A stretch of DNA of 64,000 bases. It comes from Alphaproteobacteria bacterium (GTDB lineage Bacteria > Pseudomonadota > Alphaproteobacteria > Rickettsiales > UBA8987). Numbering within the stretch: position 1 is the stretch's first letter; each line of letters starts with the position of its first letter. Below the pieces are notes generated by a model, which was given only the letters and a program-made list of their open reading frames with translations, was not told the origin of the DNA and made no database searches. Positions 34,538 through 38,491 of this stretch are shown here, in pieces. The stretch is taken from positions 3,477 to 67,476 of the forward strand of contig JANPLD010000118.1 of NCBI GenBank assembly GCA_031426355.1, read 5' to 3'. The position numbers and the translations under genes were made by a program.

Positions 34538-36694
34538 CTAATCTTTATCTTTAACTTTATCCTTGTCTTTTGCAGGGATCTTTCTTCCGCCGCCAACCCT
34601 TTCAACTACCGGGCCGGAATTCATACTGGTAAAGAACTCATCATTGGTTTTTGTCTCACGTATCTTCTCCATCAGGAACTCCATTGCGTCCATAGAACCC
34701 ATTGGGGAAATGATTTTACGTAATATCCAAACTTTCTGCATCTCACCTTCATCATAAAGAAGTTCTTCATGACGCGTGCCTGAACGAAGTATATCAATAG
34801 CCGGGAATATTCTTTTATCAGCAAGCTTACGATCAAGCACAACTTCCGAGTTACCTGTACCTTTGAATTCCTCGAATATCACCTCATCCATTCTTGAACC
34901 AGTCTCAATAAGAGCTGTCGCAATGATCGTCAGTGAACCGCCATTCTCAGTATTCCTTGCTGCACCGAAGAATCTTTTCGGCCTTTGAAGCGCATTCGCA
35001 TCCACACCACCTGTAAGTACTTTACCAGAGGATGGCACAACGGTATTATAAGCACGCGCCAGCCTTGTGATCGAATCAAGGAGGATAACAACATCCCTAC
35101 CATGCTCTACAAGCCTGCGGGCCTTCTCAATAATAAGTTCTGCTAACTGTACGTGGCGTGTTGCCGGCTCATCAAATGTCGAGCTTACAACTTCACCTTT
35201 TACCGTACGCGTCATATCCGTAACCTCTTCCGGGCGCTCATCTATCAGAAGAACAATAAGGTCAACTTCCGGATGGTTAGTTTCAATTGATTTCGCGATC
35301 GTTTGCAGAAGTACCGTTTTACCTGAACGAGGAGGCGCCACAATCAAAGCCCTTTGCCCTTTTCCAAGCGGAGAAACAAGGTCAATAACGCGCGCTGCAT
35401 TATTATTCTTATCAGTGCTAGGCAATTCCATCTTGAGTTTTTTATCAGGATAAAGCGGCGTCAGATTGTCGAAATTCGTCTTTTTGCCAAGCCTTCCATG
35501 AAGGTCAATACCATTAACACTTTTAATCCTTGTTAATGCGAAATACCTCTCACGCAATTTTGGCGCACGCACCTCACCTTCAACCGTGTCACCAGTCCTA
35601 AGCGAAAATCTTTTCACCTGATTTGGCGATACATAAACGTCATCAGGACCAGCACGGTAATTATATTCTCTCGAACGGAGGAACCCGAAACCATCAGGCA
35701 TTATCTCTAAAACACCTTCAAATATAACAATACCTTCCTGCTGCTCCATCATCACGCGGAGTATGTGGAAGATAATTTCCTGCTTAAGCATGAAGTTTGA
35801 ACCTTCAATACCAGCTTCACGGGCTAATTCTATCAGCTCTTCCGCAGGTTTTGATTTAAGGTCTTTCACGAATAATGTCGGAACATCCTTCGCTTGTGTA
35901 AATCCGCCTTCAGCATCTTCACCATTATCATCTTGTGGTGGTACGAAATCAGGCGCCTTACCCGCTACAGAATTAGAGATGTAATCATACTCATTATTCA
36001 TTGGCGGAACCGCGCTACCTGATACTATTGCCGGGTTCACATTTGGATCCATCGCCTCAGGATTCTGGTTTGCATCAACCCTTACTGGCTGTGGCTGCCT
36101 TTCAAAACCGCCATCATTACCATTTTTCTCAGGCCTGTTATTGTCATATCTATCGTTATTACGATCATTATTGCGGTTATCATATCTACCGCCGCCTCTA
36201 TTATTATCATATCTGTCGTTACTATTACGGTTGTCATATCTTCCGCCACCGCCGCTATTATTCCTGTCGTTACGGTCATTTCTTCCCCTGCCACCGTTAC
36301 GGTCATTCCTGTCATTATTATTGCGATCGTTACGGAAATTATTCCTGCGAGGTGCGCCGTTATTATGCCCGCCAGAACCGCCGCCATTCCCTCTGTTGTC
36401 ATCACGGTTACCCCTTTCATAGCCACCGCCTTCACCTCTATCGCCCCTTACATCGCCTCGACCCTCAGCCCTCGTCCCGCCTTGGTTAGGTGCATTATCA
36501 CCATTACTTTCATTTGTAACTACCGGAGCCGCTTGAGCTACCGGAGCTGAAACTGCCGCCGATTGTACTGGAGCCGCCGCTGGAGCTTCTGGAGTTTGTA
36601 CCGAAACTGGTGCTGAAGCATCTGAGCTTCCTTGATCTTTACTTTCTTTCGCTGGAGTTTTACGCGCGGAAAGACCGAGTTTTTCTTCTGTCAT
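34538..36694 (-). CDS. rho: transcription termination factor Rho with ~270-aa low-complexity N-terminal extension
   Basis: 718 aa; canonical Rho from about aa 272 ([22 protein letters not shown]...PDGFGFLRS, Walker [10 protein letters not shown] loops); aa 1-270 Ala/Pro-rich then R/G/N/D-rich repeats. Confidence 0.95.
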
Positions 36695-36777
36695 ATATAT
36701 TGTTTGTTAGTTTAAGTTTTAGATTAGATTGTTTGGATAATATTTTGGAATAATTGGATATTATTGATTTTGATGAG
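36695..36777 (-). promoter_or_regulatory. G-free, C-containing 5' leader directly upstream of rho start (rut-like)
   Basis: Plus strand has no C for 83 nt (36695-36777), so the minus-strand RNA has no G but about 20 percent C; 10-11-nt phased TTGGATAAT-like units. Confidence 0.5.
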
Positions 36778-36973
36778 CTAAAAATTGCTTATAAGTACAA
36801 ATGTTATCTGATCTTATAAAACGGAATCTAGCGGAGGTAATCTAAAGACGAGTAGGCATTGCACCCAGCTCTTTAATTAGAACTCACATTATGCCTTGAA
36901 GCACCAGAGTTGCCCTCATTCTATACAGATAAAAACACCTGTCAAAGGGTATTTTTTAATTATAATCATTTAT

Positions 36974-38491
36974 TTAAGTAAGCTCCATACCCTTCTTCAA
37001 GGCTTTTTGCATATTCACTTCTCCATTAGATTTTTCCGAATTGATGGCTTTTATCGTATTTGAAAACTCACTTGCCAACCTGTTAAGCTCCTCTAACTGT
37101 TCCGGTGCCATTACACCCTCAAACATCTTTGGATGATCTTTTAAAAACTTCTCAATTTCCTCAATTTTATAAATGCATGGGCAATAACTTCTCATCTCTT
37201 CACCATTCCGCAGATCATAAGATTCAGGTAATTGCTGCTCAAATATATGCTGGAATTTAACTTTTCTTTTTTCTCCACCGCCATCAATATCAATTCCTTC
37301 CTCTTTCACTTTGTATAAAATAGCTTGAAAAAGCTTCTGAAATTCACGCCTGAACTCCTCATAGTTATGAATATCAGGCTTTATACTTTCCAAATATTCA
37401 TAACCTTTTATATAAAGCTCCTGGGACTTCTTATTTAATTTATCAAAATTATCATTGAATTCCTTACTATCACCACCAGGTTTAATCTTATCAAAAATTG
37501 TTTGAATATCATGTATGCCATCACCATCTTTTTCAGGGATGGACTTCACAACTTTATTGATAGTTTTATCTAATTTATACATGAACTCCAAAAGCTCATG
37601 CGGGTAAAAATAACTTCTTTTTTTAAAATTTTCCTGATCATTAATTTTACTAGGTTCAAAATCTTTAAATACTTTTTTAAAGTTTTCCTCCCATATTTTT
37701 TCAGGATTATTTATTAAATCATGAACGGCAATTTCTTTTAATTCTATCTTGCCATCAATTTCTTTATGATGTTTTTTGTAATATTTATTTATATCTTTAA
37801 GTGCTTCTTTTGAATTTTCCTCAAAGCCTTTCCCTAACTGCCTCACTTTATCAAATCGTTCCTGGAAATTTTCAGGAAAATAAAATCTGGTTGCTTCGTT
37901 TTCATGGGCCTTATCTATGACAGACACCATATTTATATAGCCATCATCAATTACTATATAGCGGTCTGCAAATTTATATAATTGGTTTTCAGCACCTATG
38001 CTTCTATTAGGATCAACGAAGGAATATCTTATAGGTACATCCCACCTTTCAGATTTATAAGGACGATTATTATTTATATGATCAGTAATCTGCTGGGATA
38101 GATTAGATTTTAATCCGGATATTTCCTCCGAAAGTTTATTGGCAGAGCTTAATAAAGATTCCTCTGACATTATCTTCATAACATCTCCCGCAGGCATAGA
38201 TATTAATGTTTCAAAAAATTGTTTTTGATCTTTATCCATCCATGAATTGATATTCCCTGAAGAATACTTAGCTAAAAGCACATCTCTTTCATCAGGCGTC
38301 ATTTCATTCTTAAAAACGGCATCATATGTATGATATTGCTCAAAAAAAGTGTCATAAGTATAGGGGTTTGTGATTACTTCCTTAATATATTTCTGCGGAT
38401 CAGTTTTCCAGAGTCCGTTAGGTTCATGCTCTTTATCATATTGCAGCCTTTGAGCTGCGGCTTTAATTATATCTAATGGCGTAACAGGCAT
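36974..38491 (-). CDS. hypothetical protein (orphan, 505 aa, K/E-rich helical)
   Basis: Long ORF with SD (aagggg) and own box promoter; no motif recognised. Confidence 0.55.
   Translation of the reverse strand: MPVTPLDIIKAAAQRLQYDKEHEPNGLWKTDPQKYIKEVITNPYTYDTFFEQYHTYDAVFKNEMTPDERDVLLAKYSSGNINSWMDKDQKQFFETLISMPAGDVMKIMSEESLLSSANKLSEEISGLKSNLSQQITDHINNNRPYKSERWDVPIRYSFVDPNRSIGAENQLYKFADRYIVIDDGYINMVSVIDKAHENEATRFYFPENFQERFDKVRQLGKGFEENSKEALKDINKYYKKHHKEIDGKIELKEIAVHDLINNPEKIWEENFKKVFKDFEPSKINDQENFKKRSYFYPHELLEFMYKLDKTINKVVKSIPEKDGDGIHDIQTIFDKIKPGGDSKEFNDNFDKLNKKSQELYIKGYEYLESIKPDIHNYEEFRREFQKLFQAILYKVKEEGIDIDGGGEKRKVKFQHIFEQQLPESYDLRNGEEMRSYCPCIYKIEEIEKFLKDHPKMFEGVMAPEQLEELNRLASEFSNTIKAINSEKSNGEVNMQKALKKGMELT

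Follow-up and report, generated by a model that had tools for sequence, protein, structure and literature searches.

A Rho protein with a predicted disordered N-terminal arm of 275 residues in an uncultured Rickettsiales-like alphaproteobacterium

The minus strand of a 64,000-nucleotide stretch of alphaproteobacterial DNA (contig JANPLD010000118.1; the whole stretch is hereafter called the window) carries a rho gene whose product reaches its first recognizable Rho domain only after some 270 residues. This raises the question whether the long N-terminal part really belongs to the protein and, if it does, what it may do for Rho. Taken as a whole, the evidence makes it probable that the gene is the functional rho of an uncultured Rickettsiales-like alphaproteobacterium living in freshwater sediment, and that its product is a complete canonical Rho, with predicted activity, extended by a disordered arm of 275 residues.

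Domain layout, composition and predicted disorder of the extended Rho

The gene and the domains of its product are the following.

34538-36694, minus strand: rho coding sequence, a single open reading frame of 718 amino acids plus stop, matching TIGR00767
35870-36694, minus strand: N-terminal extension (the arm), residues 1-275, which precedes every Rho model match
35735-35863, minus strand: Rho_N helix bundle, residues 278-320 (PF07498, E 2e-10; AlphaFold2 predicted local distance difference test score, pLDDT, >90)
35504-35719, minus strand: Rho RNA-binding (OB/CSD-like) domain, residues 326-397 (PF07497, Rho_RNA_bind, E 1e-31)
34781-35392, minus strand: RecA-type ATPase domain, residues 435-638 (PF00006, E 2e-29)

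Over residues 276-692 the protein matched the NCBIfam rho equivalog TIGR00767 at 670.4 bits (cut-off 509.45); it also matched NF006886, at 662.8 bits (cut-off 315). The three Rho domains recognized by Pfam stand in canonical order, Rho_N, OB-type RNA-binding and RecA-type ATPase, and in an alignment of 63 Rho sequences the DGFGFLR (334-340), Walker A GKT (458-460) and DERPEEV (485-491) elements are invariant. In the same way, residues 277-692 align with residues 4-417 of the E. coli Rho chains (1pv4). The identification of the protein as Rho, made in an initial annotation from the letters of the window, is borne out by TIGR00767 together with the Pfam domains.

Upstream of residue 270-277 there was no alignment to any Rho model or PDB Rho chain, and a PDB search with the arm alone as query returned insignificant xylanase matches only (E 0.06 or worse). 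The initial annotation had drawn an N-terminal extension of about 270 amino acids (residues 1-270, 35885-36694), which is essentially right given the 275 amino acids measured here. It had also placed the extra region before the helix bundle, not within the N-terminal domain. This placement holds, since only 5 residues separate the end of Rho_N (320) from the start of Rho_RNA_bind (326) and there is consequently no insertion between the helix bundle and the RNA-binding domain.

Three segments can be distinguished in the arm, as had been proposed (Ala/Pro/Val/Ser in residues 1-70, R/G/N/D/Y in about 72-187, N/P/D in 190-270), and the residue counts agree with this description.

36485-36694, minus strand: Ala/Ser/Pro/Val-rich segment, residues 1-70, comparable to the published 'APA' motif type
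36125-36484, minus strand: R/G/N/D(/Y) polyampholyte block, residues 71-190, with RGG/GGR elements and NDR micro-repeats
35870-36124, minus strand: Pro/Asn/Asp-rich, net acidic linker to the helix bundle, residues 191-275

The first segment contains 21% Ala, 13% Ser, 11% Pro and 10% Val, and no aromatic residues. The central block (residues 71-190) contains 24% Asn, 22% Gly, 22% Arg and 13% Asp; within residues 72-187, R/G/N/D reach 84%, or 89% when Tyr is included. This block bears 27 positive and 20 negative charges, a charged-residue fraction of 0.39, and its charges are well mixed, with a sequence charge decoration (SCD), the measure used for charge patterning, of 0.70, not different from that of shuffled sequences. 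The linker is richest in Pro (13%), Asn (12%) and Asp (11%), with charges of +4/−14. Asn accounts for 16% of the whole arm while Gln is scarce. The richest stretch of 40 amino acids is 92.5% R/G/N/D, compared to 50% or less in the other open reading frames of at least 100 amino acids in the 64-kb window. The R/G/N/D bias of the arm is far beyond chance and extreme for this genome.

Within the central block, two adjoining peptide repeats were found.

36197-36250, minus strand: peptide repeat copy 1, residues 149-166, 18 amino acids
36134-36196, minus strand: peptide repeat copy 2, residues 167-187, 21 amino acids, adjoining copy 1

The two copies share 46 of 54 aligned nucleotides; they are set apart by a 9-nucleotide indel and 8 mismatches, of which 7 are synonymous. 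A repeat search of the block gave just 2-4 loose copies with 67-85% identity. Around the repeats runs a micro-periodicity of NDR units (8 NDR; 9 DR compared to 3.4 expected), with an Arg each 3-5 residues. The repeat described in the initial annotation thus exists, as two imperfect adjacent copies, and the term 'near-perfect' overstated it. A long tandem array in the block was considered and rejected, as Tandem Repeats Finder called none there and reported only a weak 9-nucleotide match in the Ala/Pro part.

The structure of the protein was predicted with AlphaFold2, using the 63-sequence alignment. The Rho domains were modelled with confidence and the fold begins at residue 273. Residues 1-260 showed block-mean pLDDT values of 34-46, and residues 1-268 had no secondary structure, with pLDDT below 50 apart from a few residues; within the arm a value of 50 is reached solely at residues 4, 100 and 249-251. 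The arm is predicted, from this model, to be intrinsically disordered, as the initial annotation had held.

Translation, selection and inheritance of the arm

The nearest relative of the window Rho, P0002, is 87% identical, lies on a separate Logan contig (L081) from a different sample, and carries an arm of 251 amino acids with the same architecture. The codon-level comparison of the two arms showed 87 synonymous and 48 non-synonymous differences, corresponding to a synonymous divergence (dS) of 0.93 and a ratio of non-synonymous to synonymous divergence (dN/dS) of 0.095. By segment, dN/dS was 0.20 for residues 1-70, 0.039 for residues 71-190 and 0.123 for residues 191-275, compared to 0.028 for the Rho core. 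All arm length differences between the two sequences are whole codons and the frame is open in both. Most of the difference in length falls in residues 1-70, as in-frame indels of 4 and 11 amino acids. These codon-level data show that purifying selection acts on the arm in the Rho frame.

The extension could nevertheless be an annotation or assembly artefact, the true start lying near residue 274-276 and the upstream frame being an untranslated leader open by chance. A GTG codon encodes residue 276, precisely at the canonical Rho start, the ATG at 36694 lacks an evident Shine-Dalgarno sequence, and the low complexity of the region keeps other frames open too, for example 36082-36435 on the minus strand and 36001-36489 on the plus strand. 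However, this GTG, which is the sole start-type codon near the canonical start, is not conserved, being GTT in L081 and GTA in L001 (a close relative among the GTDB species representatives), and the closest AGGA sits 16 nucleotides upstream of it, too distant for a Shine-Dalgarno sequence. The internal start near residue 270 that the initial annotation had itself raised as an objection therefore finds no support. In addition, a dN/dS as low as that of the arm, at the dS measured, is incompatible with non-coding sequence, and the extension is open in all 39 members of the clade described below, with the same extended architecture on independent contigs, one of them of 687 kb. The reading of the extension as an artefact or an untranslated leader can be all but dismissed.

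A short isoform initiating at the GTG of V276 was rejected as well, the codon being unconserved and devoid of a well-spaced Shine-Dalgarno sequence. The in-frame Met codons stand at residues 215 and 232, and then from 302 onward, inside Rho_N. At the other end of the arm, the N-terminus MTEEK is common to several orthologues, and MTEEK and the motif following it are kept although the flanking sequence has fully diverged. The ATG is abutted by a G-free leader.

36695-36777, minus strand: G-free, C-containing 5' leader of 83 nucleotides, directly upstream of the ATG (A42 T24 C17 G0)

The G-free run is conserved in L081, where it measures 82 nucleotides, and is shorter in L001, with 49 nucleotides. 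With its excess of C over G, the leader is predicted to be rut-like, which would fit Rho autoregulation by attenuation.

Therefore, the purifying selection, the whole-codon indels, the mainly synonymous differences between the two peptide repeats, the unconserved GTG, the conserved MTEEK and the abutting leader together support that the arm is translated from the ATG at 36694 and is, as far as these comparative data indicate, part of the Rho protein. For annotation practice, the upstream ATG should be retained for this rho gene. The Logan assembly of the source run showed 0 differences across nucleotides 35700-36900, a weak check only because the same reads underlie both assemblies.

Open reading frames of 93-162 amino acids overlie the low-complexity part of rho, namely the two mentioned above and 36141-36422 on the plus strand. 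These frames, in alternative phase or on the opposite strand, were rejected as genes and taken as by-products of the biased codon repeats, since selection acts in the Rho frame.

The distribution of the arm among relatives was then considered. The best named relatives are Rickettsiales metagenome-assembled genomes and an amoeba endosymbiont. Rho_N is preceded by at least 50 amino acids in 49 of the 120 best database matches; in 57 of them the extension does not exceed 10 amino acids. A tree built from the 418-amino-acid Rho core alone, with the arms excluded, places the window Rho in a 39-member clade (support 97), in all members of which the arm has at least 59 amino acids. Within this clade it belongs to a 19-member subclade (support 100) and to a group of 4 members (support 99) whose arms measure 202-275 amino acids. 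On this core tree the long/short arm label requires only 5 changes, compared to 38 in shuffles. Among the GTDB species representatives, L001 is the sole close relative with a long arm, and most alphaproteobacterial matches are canonical Rho proteins of 417 amino acids. The core-tree distribution shows that the arm is inherited within the clade and was lengthened in the sub-lineage of the window, via in-frame indels and short duplications.

Relation to known additional regions of Rho

Moreira, Chyou, Wade & Brown (2024, Nucleic Acids Research) classed the additional regions of Rho by position (PMC11347177). Their Type 2a, with an 'initial region' before the N-terminal domain, comprises 18.7% of Rho sequences, with regions of up to 352 amino acids; it is found in a minority of Pseudomonadota, and the Xanthomonas Type 2a Rho is reported to terminate transcription (PMC11347177). 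APA, QN and RxR motifs occur in the initial regions, for which disorder (flDPnn) and droplet formation are predicted (PMC11347177). In the window Rho, 275-277 residues precede a detectable Rho_N and no insertion of more than 25 amino acids follows it; the region is disordered according to AlphaFold2 pLDDT, a different predictor from the flDPnn of Moreira et al. The insertion types (2b/2c) are defined by an extra region that separates the helix bundle from the OB domain, and the window Rho lacks it. As every Type 2a property that was checked is present, the window Rho is a member of this class, and the placement of its additional region as an extension and not an insertion does not make it distinctive, this being the published 'initial region' class (PMC11347177). 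A bias towards R/N/D/G, along with convergent short repeats of the R-N-Y-D type, has also been described in intrinsically disordered regions (IDRs) of Rho by Schumbera et al. 2023 (PMC10284900). Architecture and bias are thus already published, and the window Rho is a further example of Type 2a. A literature search on disordered Rho in Rickettsiales found no report.

A close published likeness in layout is the Type 2a Rho of Xanthomonas oryzae (+214 amino acids), which also has a region of more than 25 amino acids, predicted to be disordered, before Rho_N, the latter being followed by the OB domain without an insertion. Both begin with an Ala/Pro-rich part, followed by N-rich and Arg-rich stretches, and the 275 amino acids of the window arm are within the published range. 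The two differ in lineage, Rickettsiales-like and not Xanthomonadales, and in the centre of the arm, which in the window consists of R/G/N/D/Y and not of repeated APA/QN motifs. Moreover, the window Rho has clade-specific motifs and a C-terminal tail, and the two arms are not homologous in sequence.

More than 97% of the Rut substrates of M. tuberculosis Rho depend on its disordered Arg-rich N-terminal insertion domain (NID), and a 'high-avidity corona' model was put forward (PMC13650167). Like the NIDs of M. luteus and M. tuberculosis (Type 2b/2c; PMC13650167), the window arm is predicted to be disordered, is R/G/D/N-rich and is located beside the primary RNA-binding site, and by analogy its likely role would be to provide extra RNA affinity or avidity. 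Unlike it, these NIDs follow the helix bundle as insertions ahead of the OB domain, while the window arm precedes the bundle, and their hosts are GC-rich whereas the window is AT-rich (39% GC).

The IDR of B. thetaiotaomicron Rho (Krypotou et al. 2023, 2026; PMC13269538), in which short charged motifs control RNA-dependent condensation, resembles the window arm in being multi-part and variable, with few short conserved charged motifs. The short motifs of the window clade are analogous, not homologous, to those of B. thetaiotaomicron, and the K/E-rich arms of some relatives in the clade recall the same IDR. In contrast with the window arm and its APA, RGND and NPD parts, the B. thetaiotaomicron IDR is an insertion, with KE-rich and Q/N prion-like subdomains; condensation and ppGpp dependence have been shown for B. 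thetaiotaomicron Rho, while the window Rho is known from sequence alone. With the Rho IDRs of Lachnospiraceae (YQSRGD and RNYQD repeats; PMC10284900) the window arm shares short R/N/Y/D repeats, here as RYDNRN/NDR units. This likeness looks like convergent composition. The Lachnospiraceae IDRs have 5-14 units, compared to two long copies plus micro-repeats in the window, and differ in their position in the protein and in phylum.

Possible roles of the arm and of its conserved motifs

By analogy with the systems described above, we infer that the arm may act as an RNA-capturing or condensate-tuning device. Six arms would surround the primary RNA-binding face of the Rho hexamer. The R/G/N/D/Y block, with its RGG/GGR elements, its regularly spaced Arg residues and Tyr residues as stickers, could make weak multivalent contacts with RNA, which would raise the avidity for transcripts and broaden the choice of rut sites. 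Where RNA or protein is highly concentrated, the arms could also promote condensation that depends on RNA. Two motifs described below, a basic-hydrophobic one at the tip of the arm and an acidic hydrophobic-Pro-acidic one near its end, may tune these effects via contacts within the arm or with partners. The observation of the initial annotation is confirmed and its reading is supported, RNA binding and condensation being proposed by analogy.

Several points weigh against this role. The Arg-rich or condensing Rho regions that have been studied by experiment are insertions that separate the helix bundle from the OB domain, not N-terminal arms. The near-neutral, well-mixed charges of the central block would give an expanded, weakly self-associating chain, so that RNA affinity or condensation could be modest. 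In the AlphaFold2 model, no part of the arm is docked on the folded domains. The composition of the arm turns over within the clade, some members being R/D/N(/G)-rich and others K/E(/S)-rich, and such turnover of sequence and composition appears compatible with a weak constraint at the level of composition only. Finally, the locus was found in no RNA run searched, the only data set containing it being a freshwater sediment metagenome, the source of the sequence.

Considering that Asn makes up a quarter or nearly so of the centre of the arm, a prion-like function has to be weighed. Clostridium botulinum Rho reportedly has a prion-like, self-templating aggregation domain that turns Rho off, and the window Rho likewise has an Asn-rich disordered region attached to it. 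Prion-like domains are typically low in charge. The Asn-rich part of the window arm is, on the contrary, densely charged, with an Arg or Asp every few residues, and Gln is scarce; in addition, the C. botulinum domain is an insertion and not an N-terminal extension. Prion-like stretches have been predicted in 16.7% of the sequence windows of 'initial regions' (PMC11347177). We give very little credence to a self-templating domain that would turn the window Rho off, since the charge density of the arm makes a prion-like switch unlikely.

Short conserved motifs were found in the arm and in a C-terminal tail; three of them, at the tip, in the acidic stretch near the helix bundle and in the tail, persist in spite of the turnover.

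36659-36682, minus strand: tip motif KLGLSARK, residues 5-12; clade pattern x-L-x-[LIV]-x(0-3)-[KR]
35978-35992, minus strand: EYDYI motif, residues 235-239, restricted to the 5 nearest relatives
35927-35950, minus strand: DFVPPQDD hydrophobic-Pro-acidic motif, residues 249-256, about 21-27 residues before Rho_N
34541-34618, minus strand: disordered C-terminal tail, residues 693-718, beyond the TIGR00767 end and with low pLDDT

Of 38 clade members, 27 have the tip motif, compared to a mean of 1.1 and a maximum of 6 in 1000 shuffles; none of the 21 extended Rho proteins outside the clade has it. The acidic motif, in its strict pattern, occurs in 13 of 38 clade members compared to 0.3 in shuffles; the DFVPPQDDN of the window itself fails this strict pattern (two consecutive acidic residues) and was assigned by eye, in a right-anchored comparison. 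Because the motif patterns were drawn up after inspection, and on related sequences, the shuffle control overstates the significance. These statistics indicate that the conserved islands are real, and do not speak to the strength of selection on them. In the C-terminal tail, a '(V)VVER.GG' motif is present in most of the P0001-P0012 subgroup and absent from P0009, P0010 and canonical Rho. With 26 residues following the TIGR00767 end, the tail is a borderline case of the Type 3 'extension region' (>25 amino acids), depending on where the authors' ATPase model ends. The present analysis adds the clade-specific short motifs at both ends of the arm together with the C-terminal tail, and the motif islands are a modest lead.

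These motifs open the possibility that the arm serves chiefly to tether protein partners, the low-complexity middle being an entropic spacer and the short motifs the working parts. The tip motif, DFVPPQDD and perhaps VVER.GG would then dock Rho on RNA polymerase, NusG/NusA, the ribosome, the degradosome or its own domains, the last as an autoinhibitory latch. The motifs are conserved while the intervening length, sequence and composition diverge, the tip motif is specific to the clade, and the Rho IDR of B. thetaiotaomicron is a documented case in which conserved short motifs are regulatory (PMC13269538). However, the partner is hypothetical, AlphaFold2 gives no confident contact, and the significance of the motifs is overstated for the reasons given above. 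Furthermore, the strong constraint on the R/G/N/D block among close relatives (dN/dS 0.039) would be needless for a pure spacer. We hold this tether to be rather unlikely. There is similarly only a small chance that the arm is a clade-specific regulatory device in which the tip and DFVPPQDD motifs, possibly with the VVER.GG tail, form a latch or partner dock gating the primary RNA-binding site. If such a latch or docking reading were true, it would represent a new mode of Rho control in small-genome bacteria with few other regulators.

The interest of such arms comes from the fact that Rho shapes the whole transcriptome and that its disordered additional regions alter which RNAs are terminated, as in M. 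tuberculosis, or switch activity by condensation, as in B. thetaiotaomicron. The locus by itself opens no new question and its novelty is low given the published class. With it, the catalogue of Type 2a Rho proteins comes to include a clade of uncultured Rickettsiales-like bacteria; Proteobacteria supply a minority of the examples in this class. The clade also offers a natural series on what is selected in arms, with lengths of 59-275 amino acids and R/D/N-rich or K/E-rich composition, the short motifs being fixed.

Some further observations concern the tip motif. Across P0001-P0043, the arms alternate between the two compositions given above with the tip motif retained as L-x-[LIV]-x-x-[KR]. 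In some clade members the motif is present twice, for example in P0028 (KKTLTVKKKTLTV) and P0025. The tip motif (T/K-L-x-[LIV]-K/R, residues 5-12) also resembles the T-L-[YF]-V-K strand (residues 271-276; AlphaFold2 strand 273-275) that stands immediately before helix 1 of Rho_N in this clade. The resemblance may be fortuitous, or it may stem from an old duplication or point to a strand that competes.

Upstream of rho, at 36974-38491 on the minus strand, lies a gene for a K/E/D-rich protein of 505 amino acids with no obvious relation to rho.

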